From the NCBI GenBank assembly GCA_047638715.1, contig JBLIMK010000007.1, forward strand, positions 4,265-68,264: a stretch of 64,000 nt of DNA, given 5' to 3'. A model generated the notes under the pieces. It made no database searches and was not told the DNA's origin. It saw only the letters and a program-made list of their open reading frames with translations. The stretch comes from Verrucomicrobiales bacterium (GTDB lineage: Bacteria; Actinomycetota; Acidimicrobiia; Acidimicrobiales; SHLQ01). How positions within the stretch are numbered: the first letter of the stretch is position 1; each line of letters starts with the position of its first letter. Made by a program: the position numbers and the translations under genes. This document shows positions 9,195 to 42,238 of the stretch, in pieces.

Positions 9195-10174
9195 CTCAGC
9201 AGGCCCATGTTTCGTTTCGCCCGAGCCAACACTTCCGAGGCGATCGCTTCGGCCTTGTCGGCACCGATTCGAAGCAAACGCTCGGTCTCGGCGGGGTCGG
9301 CCTGAAGCTCAGCGAAACGTGTCTGGATCGGGCGAAGGAGTTCGATCACAGCCTCGGCGGTGTCACCTTTCAGGGGACCGTATTGGGTGTACTGCTCGGC
9401 GAGTTCGGTAGATGGTGTGCCTGTGCATGCCGACAGAATGTCGAGCAAATTCGATACCCCGGGTTTTTGGTCGATGTCGTAGCGAACGTCGCCATCGCTG
9501 TCGGTGACGGCACGTTTGAACTTCTTCTCGATCTTCTTCGGATCTTCGAGAACGAGCACCGTGCCAGGGCTCTCCCCTTCCGACTTCGACATCTTGCGTT
9601 CGGGATGCTGCAGATCCATGATCCGAGCTCCCGCAGGCGGGATCCTGTGCTCCGGGACAACGAAGGTGTCGCCGAATCGGGAGTTGAAACGCTCGGCGAT
9701 GTCTCGGGTGATCTCGATGTGTTGGCGCTGGTCGTCACCGACCGGAACAACATCGGTGTCGTAGAGAAGGATGTCGGCAGCTTGCAAGGCCGGGTAGGTA
9801 AAGAGCGCGGCGGAAACGAATTTGGTCGAGTCGCGGTTCGACTTGTCCTTGAACGCGGTCATTCGACTCAGCTCGCCGAAGCTCACGGTGCACTCCATCA
9901 ACCAAGCAAGTTGGGGATGTTGTGGGACTTGGCTTTGCACGAAGAGGATCGAACGTTCCGGATCGATGCCCACGGCCATCAAGAGTTGTGCCAATTCGAT
10001 TGTGTTCTTGCGCAGCACATCGGGCGGCTGCGGGAGAGTGAGGGCGTGGAGGTCGACGACGCAGTAGACCGCATCATGGTCATCCTGGAGTTTCGACCAA
10101 TTGATCAACGCTCCGAGCAAGTTGCCGAGGTGAAGTTCACCTGAAGGTTGGATGCCGCTGAACACTCGTTTCAT
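9191..10174 (-). CDS. trpS: tryptophan--tRNA ligase
   Basis: 327 aa. Class I signatures GIQPSGELHLGNLLGA (HIGH region) and KMSKS. The overall layout is typical of TrpRS. Confidence 0.95.
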   Translation of the reverse strand: MKRVFSGIQPSGELHLGNLLGALINWSKLQDDHDAVYCVVDLHALTLPQPPDVLRKNTIELAQLLMAVGIDPERSILFVQSQVPQHPQLAWLMECTVSFGELSRMTAFKDKSNRDSTKFVSAALFTYPALQAADILLYDTDVVPVGDDQRQHIEITRDIAERFNSRFGDTFVVPEHRIPPAGARIMDLQHPERKMSKSEGESPGTVLVLEDPKKIEKKFKRAVTDSDGDVRYDIDQKPGVSNLLDILSACTGTPSTELAEQYTQYGPLKGDTAEAVIELLRPIQTRFAELQADPAETERLLRIGADKAEAIASEVLARAKRNMGLLS

Positions 10175-27668: not shown

Positions 27669-28952
27669 CTACGCTGAGGCGTCGACGGCTCGTGGGAGCG
27701 TGATGGTTACCAGCGCTCCGCCCAGATTACTCGAGTCGATCTCGACCGATCCGTTCGCCGCCTCGGCCATCGCCCGAACAATATCGAGGCCGAGCCCCGT
27801 CGACCCGCTCGACGAGACGCCGCGGCCCGTGGAGGCCGGATCGATGCCAGGTCCGCCGTCAGCGACCCAGATCTTCACCGACGATCCGATCGCACCGAAC
27901 CCGACCTGCATCGACGTGCGTTCCTCAGTGTGGCGAAAGACGTTTTCGAAAAGGACATCGATTGCCGCTGCGAGCTCGGATTCGGAGACGTGTACCCGCA
28001 ACCGACCCGAGCTCTGCTGAAACCCCCAGGGACGCCCTTGGTCCTCGGCCAAGACGCTCCAGAACTCGGCACGCTCGGTCATGACAGCGCCGACTTCGCA
28101 CCCGGCGCTGTTCGCGAGCGATCCACGCACTTCACCAATCAGCCGGTTCACTACAGCGGTGACATCATCGAGGTCCCCTCGCAGGCTGCTCGCAAGCTCG
28201 GGATCGTCAACATGCTCGAGTCGCATGCGGAGCTTGGTGAGCGGAGTGCGTAAACGATGAGAGAGTTCGGCGACGAGCTCACGTTCACGTTGGAGCATCG
28301 ACGAGACTTGAGAGCCCAAGTCGTTGAAGGCGCCCGCCAGTTCGACGAGTTCACTCGGGCCGTCTGGAACGACCCGCGTGTCGAGAGCACCGTCTCCGAA
28401 CAGCCGCGCAGCGCTAGCCAGATTGCGGGTCGGCCGAACGATCGACTGGGCGAGCCGATCAGCAACAACGACTGTGATTCCGACGAGGGCTGCGCCGACT
28501 GCAAGCAGCGCAAGCCATGCCGCGGACTGTCCTTGACGGCGAGCCGAGTCGGGAACAAACACTCGAATTGCCGAGTACTGCCCTGGGCCCGTACTCACGG
28601 CCGACACAAGCTCCAACCCGCCGTCCGCTGGACCAATATTCGACCCACCCGAAGCAAGCGCTTCTCGAACATTGGCGGACCGGTCGACCTCTGGCCCGAT
28701 CGTCCACCCCTGGGACGTGATTACGGTGATGTCACCAGCACGTCCGGCGGAGGTCGCCCGAACGGCTGCTTGGATCTGTTCGGCCGTTCCGGCGATGACG
28801 AGGGTAGGAACAATCGATGCGGCTTCAGTACGTGCTACATCGATCGCTCGATCTTCTGCCGTCCGTCGAACAACGACGCCGAGAGGCACGACAAAAGCGG
28901 ATACGACAAGCAGCGAAACCGCGACGAAGACGAGGATTAGTCGCCGCCTCAT
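27669..28952 (-). CDS. sensor histidine kinase (HAMP-HisKA-HATPase_c)
   Basis: TM1 LILVFVAVSLLVVSAFVV, a second TM plus HAMP, H-box ELSHRLRTPLTKL, and VADGGPGI...GLGLDIV. Start placed at MRRRLILV, overlapping the regulator's stop (ATGA). Confidence 0.85.
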   Translation of the reverse strand: MRRRLILVFVAVSLLVVSAFVVPLGVVVRRTAEDRAIDVARTEAASIVPTLVIAGTAEQIQAAVRATSAGRAGDITVITSQGWTIGPEVDRSANVREALASGGSNIGPADGGLELVSAVSTGPGQYSAIRVFVPDSARRQGQSAAWLALLAVGAALVGITVVVADRLAQSIVRPTRNLASAARLFGDGALDTRVVPDGPSELVELAGAFNDLGSQVSSMLQRERELVAELSHRLRTPLTKLRMRLEHVDDPELASSLRGDLDDVTAVVNRLIGEVRGSLANSAGCEVGAVMTERAEFWSVLAEDQGRPWGFQQSSGRLRVHVSESELAAAIDVLFENVFRHTEERTSMQVGFGAIGSSVKIWVADGGPGIDPASTGRGVSSSGSTGLGLDIVRAMAEAANGSVEIDSSNLGGALVTITLPRAVDASA

Positions 28953-31453: not shown

Positions 31454-32995
31454 GTGACCAAAGCAACAGAAATAACGCACGCTCACCCGCAGCGCTGGAA
31501 GATCCTCGCGATTCTCAACCTGTCGCTCGTACTGATCGTGGCTAGCGTCAGCTCACTCAACCTCGCCATTCCCTCGATCCAACGAGCGCTCAACGCGACC
31601 GCATCTGAACTCGTATGGATCAACGCGGCGTACGCACTCGTGTTCGCCGGCCTCCTATTGCCGGCCGGTGCGTTGGGTGATCGATATGGTCGCAAGCGAG
31701 CACTCGTCGGAGGCCTCACGATCTTCTTGGTCTCTGCGCTGATCGCCACGTTGAGCGAGAACGCCACACAACTCATCGTGCTGCGCGGTGCTATGGGAAT
31801 TGGTGCTGCTTTGACGATGCCGGCCACCCTCTCGATTATCACGGTTGTGTTTCCACGAGAGGAGCGTGCTAAGGCGATTGCGATCTGGTCCGGATTCGCC
31901 GGTGCCGGCGGCGCCCTCGGGATCCTTGCGAGCGGCTTTCTGCTGGAATCCTTCAAGTGGAGTTCGGTCTTCTTTATCAACGTCCCGATCGCAGCGTTGG
32001 CAATCATCCTCGTCATCGCGATGGTGCCGAACTCCAAGGACCCACAAGAACGTCCGCTCGATCCGGCTGGAAGCCTGCTGTCAATCGTGGGACTTGTCGC
32101 GTTCGTCTACGGCTTGATTCAGGGTCCTGAGTTTGGATGGACCGATCCGATCGTCCTCGGGGCGTTCGCCGTCAGCATCCTCGCGATGTTCACGTGGGTC
32201 CGCGTGGGGCTCGCTCATCATGATCCACTGCTCGACCCCCGACTCTTTCGAATCCCCAAATTTCGAATGGGCAGCTTCACTATCACCAGCGCATTCCTCG
32301 TGATGTTCGGGATGTTCTTCGTGCTGACGCAATACCTGCAATTCGCCCTCGGGTACACCCCACTCGAGGCCGCGATCCGAACCCTTCCCTTCGCTCCAGC
32401 GATGATTCTCATCGCTCCACGCGGCCCGGCTCTCGCAGCGAAGATCGGCGCCGGGAAAACCATGGCGCTCGGCATGCTCACATCGACTGCCGGGTTGTTC
32501 GCGTTTGGATTTATGACCGTTTCCACGCCGTATCTCCCGATCGGCATCGCGCTCGTCGTCGCCGCTGGCGGACTGGCCCTCGTTTTCCCAACCGCGACTG
32601 AGTCGATCGTGTCGTCCCTCCCGCAGAACAAGGCTGGTGTTGCATCAGCAATGAACGATGCAACGCGTGAAGTCGGCGGAGCGATCGGTATCGCCCTCCT
32701 CGGAACCTTGTTGTCCTCGGGCTACCGCTCGGGCCTTGGCAACTCTGCCAGCGACCTCCCCCCTGAGGCTGCCGATGTCTTCCAGGACAACGTCGGAGCC
32801 GCACTCGCCGTAGCTGAACAGCTCCCGAACGGCGAGGCCCTTGCAGCCGTTGCGCGCGATGCATTCGTCGACGGAATGCAGCTGGCCATGTGGGCAGGCG
32901 CCGCCGTGATGCTCATAAGCTCAGTCATCGTGTTCCGACTCTTTCCACGAGAAGAAACTCCCGCGATCGAATCGCTCGTCGAAGAGGTTGTATGA
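31454..32995 (+). CDS. MFS transporter, DHA2 (14-TMS EmrB/QacA-like) drug:H+ antiporter family
   Basis: Motif A LPAGALGDRYGRKRAL and about 14 TM helices. The ORF opens at 31382; GTG at 31454 (VTKATEITHAHPQRWKIL) was chosen. Confidence 0.85.
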   Translation: MTKATEITHAHPQRWKILAILNLSLVLIVASVSSLNLAIPSIQRALNATASELVWINAAYALVFAGLLLPAGALGDRYGRKRALVGGLTIFLVSALIATLSENATQLIVLRGAMGIGAALTMPATLSIITVVFPREERAKAIAIWSGFAGAGGALGILASGFLLESFKWSSVFFINVPIAALAIILVIAMVPNSKDPQERPLDPAGSLLSIVGLVAFVYGLIQGPEFGWTDPIVLGAFAVSILAMFTWVRVGLAHHDPLLDPRLFRIPKFRMGSFTITSAFLVMFGMFFVLTQYLQFALGYTPLEAAIRTLPFAPAMILIAPRGPALAAKIGAGKTMALGMLTSTAGLFAFGFMTVSTPYLPIGIALVVAAGGLALVFPTATESIVSSLPQNKAGVASAMNDATREVGGAIGIALLGTLLSSGYRSGLGNSASDLPPEAADVFQDNVGAALAVAEQLPNGEALAAVARDAFVDGMQLAMWAGAAVMLISSVIVFRLFPREETPAIESLVEEVV

Positions 32996-35670: not shown

Positions 35671-35841
35671 CGTCCGCTAATGACCCTCGCCACATGCCCC
35701 TGTCTCTCAACACCTAGCTAAATCCGCCAAATTCATCCGCTACACGGGCAGACTTCAAGTGGCCGATGGTCTGACCAGTTCACTAAGTTTGTGGAGCTGG
35801 CGGTTGTCGGTACGAACCATCTGTTTTTGAACAGGAGTGTC

Positions 35842-36705
35842 ATGGCGCAAACTACGTCTGCGAATGCTGAGCCCAATCTGCGGGATCCACAGCCGATCAG
35901 GACCCGGAAAAAGCCCCTACCCTTCCCTTTGAACATCTGGCAATCAGCCGTGGGCCGCAAGTGGATCATGGCGCTCACCGGCATTGGGCTCCTGGGATTT
36001 GTCCTCGCACACATGATCGGCAACCTCCATGTGTACGAGGGACCTGCCGAGCTGCACGAATATGCCGAGGCACTTCGAGGTTTGGGCGGCGAGATCATCC
36101 CGCGCACTTGGCTGCTATGGGTTCTGCGCATCGGCCTGATCGCGATGTTCGGATTGCACATTGCCTCCGCCTACACAACCAAAGAGATCAGCCGCAAGGC
36201 CAGTGAAGAAGCAAACTTCATGGATGGCCAAAAGACGTATCCGGGTGGCCGCGACTACATCGCTGCGAACTATGCCAGCCGCACCATGCGCTGGACTGGC
36301 CCGATCATCCTGCTCTACCTGATCTTCCACCTCGCAGACCTCACCTGGGGCCTATTGCCTCACACCGACTACGTGCGTGGCGATCCGTACCACAACCTCG
36401 CGACAAGCCTGTCGAACCTGCCGGTGGCGACCATCTACGTCGTTGCCAACGTTGCTCTCGCGATCCACATATTCCATGGCGCATGGTCGCTGTTTCAGAC
36501 ACTGGGCCTCAACAACCCGAAGTACAACCAAGCCCGCCGAGGCTTCGCTGTTGGGCTTGCCGCCGTGATTCTCTTAGGCAACCTCAGCTTCCCGATCCTG
36601 GCTCAGGCCGGCGTGATCGATGACGACAAGAACGAATGTGCCCAGTACGACACCACCGAAGAGAACACCGCCTGCTTCGAGGCGATTCTCGAGGGAGGCG
36701 AATAG
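35842..36705 (+). CDS. sdhC: succinate dehydrogenase / fumarate reductase cytochrome b subunit (b558 family)
   Basis: Start at [10 protein letters not shown], preceded by [32 protein letters not shown], five TM helices and conserved His residues. It directly precedes sdhA. Confidence 0.75.
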
Positions 36706-36707
36706 AC

Positions 36708-38663
36708 ATGACCGCAACGATGGACGCGAACACCAGGGTCACAAGCCCTCGTCTCGATTCGAAAGTTCCGAGTGGCGATATCGCCACGATGTGGGAAGAC
36801 CACAAGTTCTCCATGAAGCTGGTGAACCCGAGCAACAAGCGAAAGTTCACCGTGATCGTGGTGGGCACCGGACTCGCGGGGTCATCTGCGGCCGCATCGC
36901 TCGCAGAGCTCGGCTACAAGGTGAAGGCCTTCAGCTTCCACGACAGCCCTCGCCGTGCACACTCGATCGCTGCACAGGGCGGCATCAACGCGGCCAAGAA
37001 TTACCCGAATGACGGCGACTCTGTCCACCGGTTGTTCTACGACACGGTCAAGGGCGGCGACTATCGAAGCCGTGAAGCCAACGTGCATCGCCTCGCGGAG
37101 GTATCGGTCAACATCATCGACCAGGCAACGGCACAGGGTGTTCCCTTCGCACGCGATTACGGCGGCCTTCTCGACAACCGCTCGTTCGGCGGCGCGCAAG
37201 TATCGCGCACGTTCTATGCCCGCGGACAGACCGGTCAACAGCTCTTGATCGGCGCGTATTCGGCACTCAACCGCCAGATCGAACTCGGCGGCGTCGAGAT
37301 GCACAATCGCAAAGAGATGCTGGATGTCGTCGTCAAGGACGGCGAGACCTGTGGCATCGTGACGCGCGATCTGCTCACGGGTGAGGTCGAGTCGCACTCC
37401 GCACATGCTGTGGTGCTCGCGACCGGCGGTTACGGAAACGTCTACTACCTGTCGACCAACGCCATGATGTCGAATGTGACCGCCGCGTGGCGAGCACATC
37501 GCCGTGGCGCCTTTTTCGCGAACCCTTGCTACACCCAGATCCATCCGACCTGCATTCCTGCGTCGGACGATCATCAGTCGAAGCTGACGCTCATGTCGGA
37601 GTCGCTGCGAAACGACGGTCGTATTTGGGTTCCGAAATCAGGCGAGGAGGCCCGACTCGCAGCCGAGGTGCCCGAGGGAGAACGTGACTACTACCTCGAG
37701 CGCAAGTACCCCGCGTTCGGAAACCTCGTGCCCCGCGATGTCGCCTCTCGAAATGCGAAGACGGTCGTTGATGAAGGCCGAGGCGTTGGCCCGCTGAAAA
37801 ACGGAGTGTTCCTGGACTTTGCCGACGCGATTGCTCGTGATGGGAAGGAACTCATCGCCGAAAAGTACGGCAACCTCTTCGACATGTACGCCAACATCAC
37901 CGGCGAAGATCCCTACAGCCGACCAATGCGCATCTACCCCGCAACCCACTACACAATGGGCGGCCTTTGGGTCGACTACCACTTGATGACCACGGTGCCT
38001 GGCACGTATGCGATCGGCGAGGCGAACTTCTCCGATCACGGCGCCAACCGGCTCGGCGCCTCAGCGCTCATGCAGGGCCTTGCAGACGGCTACTTCGTTT
38101 TGCCCTACACAATCGGCGATTACCTGGCCGGCAAGCTCGGTGAATCGATCGTCCCTAACGACGATCCAGCCTTCAAAGAAGTCGAAGCACATGTCGCCGA
38201 TCAGACGCACATGTGGCTGTCCGTGAATGGCACACAATCGCCCGATCACTACCACCGCGAGCTCGGAAAGATCGTGTGGAATCGCATCGGCATGGCTCGC
38301 GACAAGAACGGCCTCGAGAAAGCTGGCGACGAGATCACCTCTCTCGAGGATGAGTTCAAGAAGAACGTGAAGGTCATGGGCGACGGTGTCTCGATGAACA
38401 CCGAACTCGAGAAGGTCGGGCGAGTCGCCGACTTCTTCGAACTCGCCAAGCTGAAAGCCCGCGATGCGCTCGTGCGTGAAGAGTCGTGCGGTGGCCACTT
38501 CCGAGTGGAGAGCCAAACCGAAGAGGGTGAGGCTCTACGCGACGACGAGAACTTCCGACACGTCGCGGCATGGGAATGGAACGGCGAAGATGCCGAGCAG
38601 ACCAAACACGAAGAACAGCTCGAATTTGAGAATGTCGCACTTAGCCAACGCAGCTACAAGTAG
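36708..38663 (+). CDS. sdhA: succinate dehydrogenase / fumarate reductase flavoprotein subunit
   Basis: FAD fold [22 protein letters not shown], covalent-FAD region [12 protein letters not shown], and C-terminal ESCGGHFR. Start placed at MTATMDAN, 3 nt after the sdhC stop. Confidence 0.9.
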
Positions 38664-38675
38664 AGGGTCAGAGAC

Positions 38676-39458
38676 GTGAACGACGAAAACAACATCAACC
38701 TCACCCTCGAAGTCTGGCGCCAAAACGGCCCGACCGAAAAGGGACGCTTCGAAACCTATGAGGCGAGGGACATCAGCGTTGATTCCAGCTTCCTCGAGAT
38801 GCTCGACGTGGTCAACGAACGGCTGATCCAGGACGACAAGATCCCAGTCACTTTCGAAAGTGATTGCCGAGAGGGCATTTGCGGCACCTGTTCGCTCATG
38901 ATCAACGGTCAGGCTCACGGCCCCAACAAGGGTCAGGCGACGTGTCAGCTGCACATGCGGACATTCTCGAACGGCGATCACATCACCATCGAACCGTTCC
39001 GCGCGACCAGCTTTCCGGTCATCAAGGACCTCGCAGTCAGCCGTGCCGCGATGGACAAGATCCAGCAATCGGGCGGCTATATCTCTGTCGCTACTGGTTC
39101 AGCACCCGACGCGAACCTCACACCGGTGCCTAAAGAAGCTGCCGACATGGCCTTCGACGCTGCCGCCTGCATTGGTTGTGGTGCGTGCGTGGCCGCATGT
39201 CCGAACTCCGCAGCGCAGCTGTTCACGTCGGCCAAGGTGCAGCATCTCAACCTGCTTCCACAGGGCCAGTCCGAGCGCTGGATGCGGGTCGAGAACATGG
39301 TCGACACAATGGAAGACTTCTTCGGCACCTGCACCAACCATGGCGAATGTCATGAGGCCTGCCCCAAAGACATCAGCCTCGATTTCATCGCGTTCATGAA
39401 CCGCGATTACATCAAGGCCAAGGTGAAGAACCGCAAGCTCGCCGGCCAAAAGAACTAG
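38676..39458 (+). CDS. sdhB: succinate dehydrogenase / fumarate reductase iron-sulfur subunit
   Basis: 260 aa. Cys clusters [28 protein letters not shown] and [13 protein letters not shown]. Confidence 0.9.
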
Positions 39459-39473
39459 GCGGAGAGCTCACCG

Positions 39474-41036
39474 TCATCGGGAGAGCCGAATAACGAAGGC
39501 ATCGTCAAGGTCTCGAACAAAGATCACATTGTCGCGGTTGTAGATGATCGATGGTTGCGACAGCTGCCGGCTCAGCGGATGTACAACCCACGCGGCTGCG
39601 CCGTTCTCCAAGCTCAGCAGCCTTCCTTCGCCGAGCAGCAGAGCGGGCCCATCTTCGGCCTCGAGGGAGAGGACCTGACCATCATCTGGGCGGCCCTCAA
39701 GATCGATGACCCGAGTCCAGGAGCCATTGGCCAGACTCACGTCCCATAACGAGCCGCCCAGGCTGAGGCGTAGTCCATCAGCATGGGAAACGCCTGCGAC
39801 CCGAGCGCTGAACAAGTCGTCCGCAGAAGCGGCATCGTCGGGGATCGCAAATCGAGCGGCCAACTCGCCATCGACCCAGTGTTCGATCGTTGGTTCGTTC
39901 CCTGGTCCGTCTACAAGGCCCTCACACCGGCTATCGATAGCGCCTCGCGGGAGCGGGGCTCTGAGCGCTGCGACCTCTCCATTGGGAAGGAGCACGGGCG
40001 GCCCTGCCGGGGTTCCGAGACGGCCAATTGCCACCGGCTCGGCGTCGCGTTCGACCAAGACAGACGCCTGTGGCGCACCTCGTAGCTCGATTAGCGCTGT
40101 CGCACAGGAGAAGATCGATTCGACACGTTCGGGTTGAACGAGGTTGGTCGCGTCGACGACGACCTCGTCACCCGTGGCGCACTGGTAGAGCCGTAGTGCG
40201 GGGGCAGAGCCCGATCGTGTTCGGGCGGCTGAGCAAAGGTCTTTGAGCGGCCCATCGTCGATCAGGCTCGTCTCCAGAAGTTCTATGAGTTCAACGTTTC
40301 GTCCTCGGTCGTAATCGATGTAGCCGAAGTGCTGCTCGTCGTGGCCAAAGATGGACGGAATTCCCTCGACCTCGATGACCGGGAACCTCGGATCGACCGA
40401 CCACAGTGCACCGCGCTCCGACGTCAGGCGAATGATACGCGTCGTCTCTTGCTGAGCCCCGCCCGCTTCGGCAAAGAGGTAGTTCGTCTCGAGCAACAGC
40501 ACGGCTAACCCTGCCTCTATACGAATGAGCTCGGAGAAGTTCCTGAAGCCATCGTGTCGAGGGACCTCGGTGACGCCCCGAACCAGCGCTTCGACTTCTT
40601 GCCATGTTCTCCCATCGACGGATCGCAGGATCACGGGCGAGCCGTCTCGGTCACCGAACCCGACGCCGAGGAAACCCAGACCGTCCGGCACCACTTCGGC
40701 GAGTCGAGACGCACCGGTCGTGTCGTCGACCTGAAGCACGATGTTGCTGGTGAAAAGATCGCCGGACCGAGCAATCGCGGTTGCGGTCACCGCGGGCGCG
40801 GTGTTCCCTACAGGCGTGGTTGTCGGCGGTATTCGGCGTGATCCGTCGGCCGTCGATGCGTCGTCGGGTCGAATGGCGACGAGCAACGCCAAGAGCGCGA
40901 ACGCCACTGCGGCGAATCCGAGAAATAGCCGCCGGTTCTTATCGCGCTGTCGGCGGATGGTTTTGGGGACGTCGAGCGCGCTCGGCGACGCTTCCTCGAT
41001 CTCGACGCGCACCACCTGGCGATCGCTGTCCACCAC
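39474..41036 (-). CDS. hypothetical membrane-anchored extracytoplasmic protein
   Basis: 520 aa. Charged N-terminus, a single TM LFLGFAAVAFALLALLVAI, then a large domain with no motif I recognise. Confidence 0.5.
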   Translation of the reverse strand: MVDSDRQVVRVEIEEASPSALDVPKTIRRQRDKNRRLFLGFAAVAFALLALLVAIRPDDASTADGSRRIPPTTTPVGNTAPAVTATAIARSGDLFTSNIVLQVDDTTGASRLAEVVPDGLGFLGVGFGDRDGSPVILRSVDGRTWQEVEALVRGVTEVPRHDGFRNFSELIRIEAGLAVLLLETNYLFAEAGGAQQETTRIIRLTSERGALWSVDPRFPVIEVEGIPSIFGHDEQHFGYIDYDRGRNVELIELLETSLIDDGPLKDLCSAARTRSGSAPALRLYQCATGDEVVVDATNLVQPERVESIFSCATALIELRGAPQASVLVERDAEPVAIGRLGTPAGPPVLLPNGEVAALRAPLPRGAIDSRCEGLVDGPGNEPTIEHWVDGELAARFAIPDDAASADDLFSARVAGVSHADGLRLSLGGSLWDVSLANGSWTRVIDLEGRPDDGQVLSLEAEDGPALLLGEGRLLSLENGAAAWVVHPLSRQLSQPSIIYNRDNVIFVRDLDDAFVIRLSR

Positions 41037-41142
41037 CTCATCATCGCGCCACGGCCGAGTGTTGGCACGTCCCCTGGCGCGTTTACCAGAGGACTGAGCG
41101 CAAGCGTTGGCCGCGCCCGCCGACGCACACTACGTTCGGGCG

Positions 41143-41619
41143 ATGCACATTCTCGAAAACGGCACGAAGCTCCCGCCGATCATGGGCGTGAACCACGAAG
41201 GCGAAGCGGGCGACATGGTCGCTTCCGTCGCCGGTTCGTGGGCCGCGGTCCTTCTCTATCGAGGCGACTGGTGACCATATTGCCGTCAACAGTTGGTTGA
41301 CTTCGCAACACACGGATTGCCACTCATGGAACTCGGCATCAAGGTAGCGGGCGGCTCGGTCGATTCGCTCGAGAAGGTGCAGACGCTCCGATCCGGACTC
41401 TATGTCGGCTTCCCGATGTGGGCTGAGCTTGACGCTCCAACGGTCTCTGCCGATACGGGAGCGGCATATCAGGAGGGCGACAAGGTCTTCTTGCACGGAA
41501 CCGCATTTCTGCTAAACCCCGACGGGGAGATCGCACAGTCGCTCTACTCGACCGGGCCGATCGGACGTTTCACCGCGAGCGACATCATTCGCAAGGTTTT
41601 GTTCGAGCGGAGAAAATAG
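41143..41619 (+). CDS. peroxiredoxin-like (AhpC/TSA, PRX_like2-type) thiol oxidoreductase with in-frame TGA at 41272..41274: candidate selenoprotein (or nonsense pseudogene)
   Basis: Own translation: MHILENGTKLPPIMGVNHEGEAGDMVASVAGSWAAVLLYRGDW-[TGA]-PYCRQQLVDFATHGLPLMELGIKVAGGSVD...FLLNPDGEIAQSLYS..., 158 codons. The TGA replaces the first Cys of the family's WCPYC motif. Codon position 3 is G/C-rich on both sides in the same frame. The ORF track shows only the 3' part (41293..41619) from an internal TTG. Confidence 0.6.
41281..41307 (+). other. bacterial SECIS-like stem-loop immediately downstream of the in-frame TGA
   Basis: UGC-C-GUCAAC-[AGUUG]-GUUGAC-UUC-GCA: a 6-bp perfect upper stem, a 3-bp lower stem, and a 5-nt apical loop containing GU. 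The loop lies 17-21 nt after the UGA, within the spacing I recall for bacterial SECIS elements. Confidence 0.5.
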
Positions 41620-41701: not shown

Positions 41702-42238
41702 ATGAGCGACATCACCGAGACCCAGAGCAATTGGCTCTCCGACGACGACATTGCCACGATGCGCGGCAAGATGCCCGTGATCTACATCAATGCGATCCCG
41801 GTGATCTGCGACGATCTCGGGATCGTCACCCACATTGGGTTACTGCTGCGTCTCGGCGCTGATGGCGATGTGAATCGCGAGATCGTCTCTGGCCGAATCT
41901 TGTATGGAGAGCGCGTACGCGATGCCCTTCTTCGACATCTTGAAAAGGACCTGGGGCCCCTCGCACTGCCCCAGATCCCCGCGTCTCCACAACCGTTCAC
42001 GGTCGTGGAGTACTTCCCGAACCCCGACATCACCGGCTTCCATGATCCGCGCCAGCACGCGGTCAGCTTGGCCTACATCGTTCCGGTCCGCGGTGATTGC
42101 GAACCTTCCCAGGACGCGCTCGACCTCGTGTGGCTACGACCCGATGAGGTCACGAGCCCCACCGTGGCAGCCGAGCTCAGCCCAGGCCATGAAAAGCTCG
42201 TCCGTCGAGCACTAGCGCACGTAGGACGCCTGCCGTAA
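41702..42238 (+). CDS. NUDIX-fold-like protein (DUF4916-like)
   Basis: 178 aa. General NUDIX-like layout (GRILYGERVRDALLRHLEKDLG in the Nudix-box position), but the canonical GX5EX7REUXEEXGU box is degenerate. Confidence 0.45.
   Translation: MSDITETQSNWLSDDDIATMRGKMPVIYINAIPVICDDLGIVTHIGLLLRLGADGDVNREIVSGRILYGERVRDALLRHLEKDLGPLALPQIPASPQPFTVVEYFPNPDITGFHDPRQHAVSLAYIVPVRGDCEPSQDALDLVWLRPDEVTSPTVAAELSPGHEKLVRRALAHVGRLP

Follow-up and report, generated by a model that had tools for sequence, protein, structure and literature searches.

The question raised by this locus is whether a TGA codon lying inside an otherwise open frame ends translation or is read as selenocysteine (Sec). The locus is at positions 41143-41619, on the plus strand, of the 64,000-nucleotide stretch of contig JBLIMK010000007.1 (assembly GCA_047638715.1) that was analysed as a whole and is referred to here as the window. 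One frame runs from an ATG at 41143 to a TAG stop at 41617-41619, and the TGA at 41272-41274 is its sole interruption, just as a sequence-only reading of the window had pointed out. The full selenoprotein coding sequence has 158 codons (43, the Sec codon and 114 more) ahead of the stop. The conceptual product reads MHILENG...AAVLLYRGDW*PYCRQQLVDF...STGPIGRFTASDIIRKVLFERRK, where the asterisk is the TGA. Read as Sec, this codon becomes U44, the first residue of a U-P-Y-C redox motif, and the TGC codon at 41281-41283 supplies Cys47, the partner (resolving) Cys of the UxxC. Judging from comparison with its relatives, 41143-41619 is very probably a Sec-encoding gene with Sec at residue 44. Its product is one 158-residue cytoplasmic protein with a thioredoxin/peroxiredoxin fold.

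The first competing explanation is that the UGA is a true stop. The product would then be either a 43-amino-acid (aa) peptide or a 108-aa protein re-initiated at the TTG at 41293, and the hairpin described below would be a coupling or attenuation element. That TGA is an ordinary stop elsewhere in the window, as had been claimed earlier, counts in favour of the Sec reading; it terminates 21-23 of the ~52 called genes (~40%), and the two ATGA sites offered as examples (28949-28952, minus strand; 32992-32995, plus strand) are both there. Gene callers predict a product of ~108 aa everywhere. The open reading frame (ORF) listing at the locus yields pieces only, namely 41107-41274 (55 aa), 41293-41619 (108 aa) and the antisense 41083-41496. 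The second of these, on the plus strand with its TTG start, is an annotation artefact that is reported instead of the full gene. A homologue search against 5.8 billion predicted proteins retrieved 81 matches, all of them fragments of 90-114 aa, several under the name 'hypothetical protein'. They cover the C-terminal 55-68% of the query and start at M/L-V-D-F or later, just past the TGA. The suggestion that the gene is hidden as ORF fragments is borne out by both the ORF list and the truncation of 81 out of 81 database homologues. Many relatives also offer an in-frame start (TTG, ATG or a CTG-like 'M/LVDF') after the hairpin.

The DNA of the relatives argues against termination. It was fetched from one genome per species, giving 57 loci, and 55 of these cover the TGA site. 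The sources are mostly metagenome-assembled genomes (MAGs) of Acidimicrobiia/Acidimicrobiales, including nine complete Ca. Poriferisodalis chromosomes, with a few bins labelled Burkholderiales, Syntrophales or deltaproteobacterium. At protein identities of 35-94%, every one of the 55 full-length relatives has TGA as the aligned codon; there is not one TGC, TGT, TAA or TAG. A true stop that is always TGA and never TAA or TAG in 55 relatives is not what termination leads one to expect. The partner Cys is invariant in all relatives, and the ATG 42-44 codons upstream of the TGA is conserved. Between the window and its closest relative (L002), the nonsynonymous and synonymous substitution rates (dN and dS) are 0.010 and 0.80 in the 43 codons before the TGA, and 0.044 and 0.79 in the part after it. 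Purifying selection is strong before and after the TGA. It is as strong on the N-terminal 43 codons as on the remainder, in the same frame, and these codons align with the N-termini of full-length Cys homologues.

Those Cys homologues are distant. An exhaustive HMMER search of 1.84 billion cluster representatives, with the 114 residues after the TGA as the query, found 217 relatives. The full-length homologues among them (~160 aa) align across the entire protein at 25-39% identity, and the full-length Cys homologues as a whole span 25-41%. In 25 of the 28 full-length distant homologues, the TGA column is occupied by Cys in the motif W-C-P-Y/F-C, for example YRGDWCPYCRTQL and YRGHWCPFCNEQL. The proposal that the TGA sits at the first Cys of a WCPYC motif is supported by this alignment. 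No Cys form above ~41% identity was found in either the 5.8-billion-protein search or the 1.84-billion-representative search. Another 91 representatives in the HMMER set are short, many starting M/L-[AV]-D-[FY], and look like additional truncated Sec-type lineages. For the true-stop explanation, it is awkward that homologues carry Cys at exactly the TGA column, and that the 108-aa piece would miss the whole CxxC active site together with the first beta-strands. A re-initiated 108-aa product is very unlikely because its active site would be missing, and termination at this UGA as a whole is given a very small chance.

The element that would redirect the UGA to Sec lies just downstream. The core of the putative bacterial selenocysteine insertion sequence (SECIS) occupies 41285-41301 on the plus strand, with a 6-bp stem GUCAAC/GUUGAC (41285-41290 paired with 41296-41301) and a 5-nt apical loop AGUUG (41291-41295) that begins 16 nt past the UGA. 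The arrangement UGC-C-GUCAAC-[AGUUG]-GUUGAC-UUC-GCA is the minimum-free-energy (MFE) fold of this region in the window, at -9.8 to -10.2 kcal/mol. Across the relatives, the synonymous sites of the 18-nt core CGUCAACAGUUGGUUGAC, 12-30 nt after the UGA, are frozen. Codons 48-53 are CGT in 55/55, CAA in 46/48 (among Gln codons), CAG in 55/55, TTG in 52/55, GTT in 50/53 and GAC in 53/54, and they mostly end in A or T, although the gene is otherwise rich in G+C at third codon positions. The codon entropy at codons 48-53 is 0-0.3 bits, compared to 1.4-2.0 bits at other invariant residues such as STGPIGRFT. Over the 146 six-codon windows in the gene, the median entropy at third positions is 1.40 bits, and the minimum, 0.28 bits, falls on the hairpin stretch.

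The six pairs of the stem are also maintained by paired change. In 43 distinct sequences, 96.9% of the cells for GUCAAC/GUUGAC are paired. Compensatory double changes occur at two pairs, one A-U to G-C in L030 (CGG...GTC) and the other A-U to G-C in L033, L049 and L055 (CAG...GCT). The covariation score was reached by none of 500 shuffles, and RNAalifold independently yields the same six pairs. Variants with His (CAC) retain the hairpin through a one-base register shift. The hairpin becomes significant because of these comparative data. The SECIS-like hairpin of the sequence-only reading therefore survives in its 6-bp upper stem, which is conserved, covaries and fits the bacterial SECIS model described next. 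The lower stem that had been drawn with it, UGC (41281-41283) with GCA (41305-41307), is a part of the window MFE fold; it is 76.7% paired across the relatives and absent in the Poriferisodalis clade. We reject it as a conserved SECIS part and treat 41281-41307 (+) as a clade-specific extension of the hairpin.

The constraints of a bacterial SECIS (bSECIS) model, as quoted in PMC13188914, are a loop of 3-9 nt, an upper stem of 4-16 bp, a G in the first two loop positions, a UGA-to-loop spacing of 16-37 nt and an MFE of -7.5 kcal/mol or lower. The window hairpin falls within them all, with its 5-nt loop, 6-bp stem, G-U at loop positions 2-3 and 16-nt spacing, the last being the lower limit of the model. 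Its MFE, quoted above, passes the energy limit; the conserved upper stem alone has a consensus energy of -6.7 kcal/mol. An Rfam scan of the window matched no family for the hairpin. Compared to the SECIS elements of E. coli fdhF and fdnG, the hairpin is alike in being a stem-loop within the coding region directly after the UGA, with an apical-loop G-U at a similar distance. G21-U22 of the window hairpin compares with G23-U24 of fdhF. The window hairpin differs in being much shorter, with a 6-bp core, in having no bulged U and in having no sequence similarity to the E. coli elements.

One group of relatives folds in a different way. In the Ca. Poriferisodalis clade (L034-L054), columns 10-40 after the TGA have an MFE fold that differs from the family helix; it has a 7-bp lower stem (GCCGUC.../...GACGGC), a small AGUU/GACU stem on top and a GGUU loop. 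This clade may use an extended or alternative SECIS, though the family-wide covariation favours the 6-bp GUCAAC/GUUGAC helix.

Several results weigh against reading the TGA as Sec. The Sec machinery genes selA, selB and selD and tRNA-Sec were not found in the 64-kb window or in ~1.1 Mb of flanks around the 57 related loci. ARAGORN detected no tRNA-Sec in the window and all 57 loci. In the same sequences, tblastn gave no match to E. coli SelA, SelB and SelD probes, which served as a screen only. Absence from the window and flanks shows only that the machinery is not linked to the Sec gene. A scan of the window and all loci for TGA-interrupted redox genes did not find a second selenoprotein gene. 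The hairpin itself adds some weight on this side. Its stability alone is no better than that of shuffled sequence (z = -0.25 to -0.56); since the folding energy matches the shuffled controls, the hairpin in a single sequence is not beyond chance, and we dropped thermodynamic stability as evidence. The element is very conserved, and the covariation in it amounts to no more than two or three independent events. The conserved peptide CRQQLVDF could account for part of the nucleotide conservation, but it cannot explain the frozen wobble positions.

The scan for a second gene did produce candidates that we rejected. They were antisense or frame artefacts, or adjacent gene pairs in a shared frame. 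One candidate alone recurred in multiple loci (L035, 19827), and there an ordinary TGA stop precedes the antisense strand of an ORF resembling acyl-CoA dehydrogenase.

The machinery not being found beside the gene counts in favour of a true stop, and also in favour of a second competitor, in which the UGA is read through outside the Sec pathway. A near-cognate tRNA-Trp or tRNA-Cys, or a Cys-tRNA(Sec), would then produce a W-W/C-P-Y-C protein, and Cys is evidently functional at the TGA position in the homologues. Nevertheless, the element downstream fits a SelB-type bSECIS model in loop sequence and spacing, and Sec use is documented in related Acidimicrobiales. Insertion of Cys or Trp would lead one to expect TGC, TGT or TGG, and these are never seen in 55 lineages whose synonymous sites are otherwise saturated. 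We regard readthrough of this kind as highly improbable, and decoding of the UGA without selABCD is given no better prospects.

A nonsense pseudogene, or a sequencing or assembly error in which TGC was read as TGA, would be a natural suspicion from the window by itself, since a lone in-frame stop in one window is indistinguishable from an error. The same TGA appears in 55 independent assemblies from various projects and sequencing technologies, without further disruptions except one extra TAG in L055. It had been reasoned that a pseudogene would be indicated if relatives carried the TGA with no conservation of the hairpin and with further disruptions. The opposite was found, with the stem nearly always paired and the extra TAG in that one locus alone. 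The dN/dS ratio is ~0.01-0.06 on either side of the TGA, and such low values on both sides rule out a pseudogene or sequencing error; this explanation is effectively refuted. There is next to no chance that the real gene is the antisense ORF at 41083-41496 (minus strand, 137 aa) and the plus-strand frame incidental; no other uninterrupted ORF at the locus is as long, and a simple GC-position heuristic prefers it, but in most relatives it is broken by stops whose positions vary, the closest ones (L001, L002, L003, L009 and L011-L013) among them, and both the Pfam match and the selection pattern belong to the plus strand.

The extra TAG is itself of some interest. In L055, from a MAG labelled delta proteobacterium (MFD01476.bin.2.167), at 10118-10123, TAG replaces the otherwise invariant TGG (Trp) just before the Sec-TGA, so that the gene reads ...RGA-TAG-TGA-PFC...; the remainder of the gene and the hairpin are intact. 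The TAG may have arisen by nonsense mutation or through an error in long-read assembly; a second recoded stop would be a speculative alternative.

With the TGA taken as Sec, we propose the following course of events. When the ribosome reaches the UGA at 41272-41274, the mRNA hairpin at 41285-41301 would serve as a bacterial SECIS and bring in SelB.GTP.Sec-tRNA(Sec), so that Sec is inserted and translation does not stop. We infer both the insertion of Sec and its dependence on SelB from the features of the gene. Together, Sec44 and Cys47 would make up the redox centre, U-P-Y-C, located at the N-terminal end of the first helix, with Sec44 presumably acting as the nucleophile and Cys47 resolving the selenenylsulfide. 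Such a protein would not be a canonical peroxiredoxin; its activity would be that of a thiol:disulfide (or peroxide/sulfenate) oxidoreductase.

This assignment follows from where the Sec falls on the peroxiredoxin scaffold. Once U is exchanged for C, Pfam assigns the protein to AhpC-TSA (PF00578) with E = 4.4e-12 and 46.5 bits against a cut-off of 26, and its motif, W-U-P-Y-C, is a UxxC with Sec as the first residue. In an alignment with solved AhpC structures, Cys47 (of PYC) corresponds to the peroxidatic Cys and U44 to the conserved Thr of T-x-x-C. The catalytic Arg of AhpC (...ADRATF...) aligns with Gly119, and the family consensus at that place is LH[AG]T. Neither the PxxxT/SxxC motif nor the catalytic Arg of canonical peroxiredoxins is present. 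No NCBIfam model of any kind reached its cut-off; for the peroxiredoxin models, scores were 15-28 bits against cut-offs of 211-456, the best being TIGR03137 at 28 bits versus 272, and the PrxU model NF040737 gave 22 bits versus 270. Because U44 is at the Thr position and the catalytic Arg is missing, we classify the protein as a thioredoxin-like UxxC oxidoreductase on a peroxiredoxin scaffold, and no true peroxiredoxin. The peroxiredoxin-like layout noted earlier thus holds for the AhpC/TSA fold and the Pfam match. The rest of what was proposed, a UxxC selenocysteine protein of the Prx-like sort, agrees with the AhpC/TSA match, the TGA in all 55 relatives and the purifying selection on both halves. 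The traits that we take to define cd02970 (PRX_like2), namely a CxxC whose second Cys is the peroxidatic one and the absence of the other triad residues, agree with the AhpC alignment.

Structure prediction gives the same picture. For P0131, a Cys homologue with 41% identity over 119 aligned residues, the AlphaFold model has a predicted local distance difference test score (pLDDT) of 93.8, and it places the CxxC at the N-terminus of the first long helix (52-63). By Foldseek, the structures nearest to this model are Prx/AhpC and TlpA/ResA-type oxidoreductases, with 4nmu and 3gl3 among the latter, at template modelling (TM) scores of 0.7-0.82. The protein shares with the canonical peroxiredoxins (AhpC/Prx1, BCP/PrxQ, Prx6) and with PrxU (T-x-x-U) the same fold and a Cys47 at the position of the peroxidatic Cys. 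It differs from the canonical peroxiredoxins in having Sec in place of the PxxxTxxC Thr and Gly119 in place of the catalytic Arg, and from PrxU in that its Sec lies three residues ahead of the PrxU Sec position. With the TlpA/ResA/DsbE-type CxxC oxidoreductases and the W-C-G-P-C of thioredoxin, it shares a W-[C/U]-x-x-C at the N-terminus of the first helix, where the N-terminal residue of the motif is the nucleophile. Unlike TlpA/ResA/DsbE, it has no obvious N-terminal signal peptide or membrane anchor, and its sequence similarity to them is weaker than that to AhpC.

The family is a known one. Among the selenoprotein families predicted with high confidence in prokaryotes, the 'Prx-like thiol:disulfide oxidoreductase' (PF00578, UxxC) dates back to 2004 (Kryukov & Gladyshev 2004). 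Under the name 'Prx-like 1' (pfam00578, UxxC), it numbers 225 Sec sequences in the Global Ocean Sampling (GOS) metagenomes, where 2,740 homologues have Cys instead. The window gene fits the Prx-like family feature by feature, as judged by the published description of that family (reference sequence WP_010940744.1). Both have the PF00578 domain, a UxxC with Sec first and many Cys homologues, and both are predicted on the same grounds, which are a Cys/Sec pair, TGA-containing orthologues and a bSECIS. The window subfamily differs in being centred on Acidimicrobiia, whereas the originally described members are mostly from Deltaproteobacteria, and in the lack of any Cys form found above ~41% identity.

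Sec use is also documented in the lineage. In Acidimicrobiales, Ilumatobacter coccineus, I. nonamiensis and Ca. Microthrix parvicella have SelD, SelA and SelB, with 15, 10 and 7 selenoproteins, respectively (Peng et al. 2016, Tables S1 and S2; PMC5029168). According to a 2026 preprint, selA, selB, selC and selD are present in each of 84 complete genomes of Actinomarina. The earlier view that a Sec-decoding trait here would be notable has to be given up, since Ilumatobacter, Microthrix and Actinomarina are already published Sec users. With the selenoprotein family recognised since 2004-2008 and Sec use in the class both published, there is nothing new in kind at this locus. Our literature search found no paper on Poriferisodalis.

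A more ambitious interpretation is that this is a distinct subfamily that is effectively always Sec-containing. The gene with its embedded SECIS would then be a self-contained cassette passed on by horizontal transfer, and it would be the RNA, not the protein, that dictates the peptide CRQQLVDF. The always-Sec part is suggested because no Cys form was found above ~41% identity. The 18-nt core CGUCAACAGUUGGUUGAC hardly varies between genomes that are labelled Actinomycetota, Burkholderiales, Syntrophales and deltaproteobacterium. We consider this interpretation rather unlikely.

What the locus does offer is mainly corrective. The gene is systematically mis-annotated across Acidimicrobiia, sponge-symbiont genomes included, as fragments without the active site. 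A corrected annotation gives such organisms a Sec-dependent redox enzyme and marks them as selenium users. As a bacterial SECIS, the hairpin is very compact and its core invariant, and it provides a clean example on which to try SECIS models, for which Rfam has no family; the almost invariant 18-nt core is common to several phyla, going by the genome labels.

Two further observations concern the distant homologues. Three full-length Cys-type proteins (P0089, P0091 and P0156) retain C-R-Q-Q-L, the peptide that the SECIS imposes on the Sec forms. This hints that they may be recent Sec-to-Cys conversions carrying a 'fossil' SECIS. Eight other matches (P0086, P0102, P0118, P0123, P0139, P0160, P0162 and P0178) are giant proteins of 1,700-4,300 aa that match query residues 44-96 in 7-24 repeated stretches. 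The matches are probably to a repeat resembling the ...FLHGTAFLLNPDGEI... segment and unrelated to the redox site.

The genomic setting of the gene, in a window of 60.7% G+C, is an ordinary housekeeping one. The gene is flanked in one direction by the sdhCAB operon and a poorly conserved 520-aa ORF; in the other come a DUF4916 gene, a PALP enzyme and glycosyltransferases. The operon, at 35791-39458 (+), encodes the cytochrome b subunit, the flavoprotein and the Fe-S subunit of a succinate dehydrogenase/fumarate reductase, and it is preceded in the window by a GH2-like glycosidase. The 520-aa ORF, which separates sdhB from the Sec gene at 39474-41036 (-), matches nothing in Pfam or NCBIfam and is just 27-29% identical in the three closest loci having a copy. 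The distance from sdhB to the Sec gene ranges from ~0.4 to 7 kb across the relatives, and this is therefore a variable insertion point. The order Sdh operon, Sec gene, DUF4916, PALP is kept only in the close clade (at least 77% identity); more distant relatives retain the TGA gene in different neighbourhoods. Since the gene order is limited to the close clade, no operon-based function can be inferred for the Sec gene. The DUF4916 gene, at 41702-42238 (+; E = 4.5e-77), begins 82 nt downstream of the Sec gene on the same strand, and it is directly downstream in 13 close relatives at 86-95% identity. It is possibly a co-transcribed partner of the Sec gene.

The labels of two of the related loci are in doubt. 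L001 (CAXMRH010000155.1), labelled Chthoniobacterales, is syntenic with the window through SdhA, SdhB, the Sec gene and DUF4916 at 90-94% protein identity; almost certainly it comes from Acidimicrobiia and was binned wrongly. L026, labelled Acidobacteriota and carrying a typical Acidimicrobiia-type copy of the gene, may be misbinned too.

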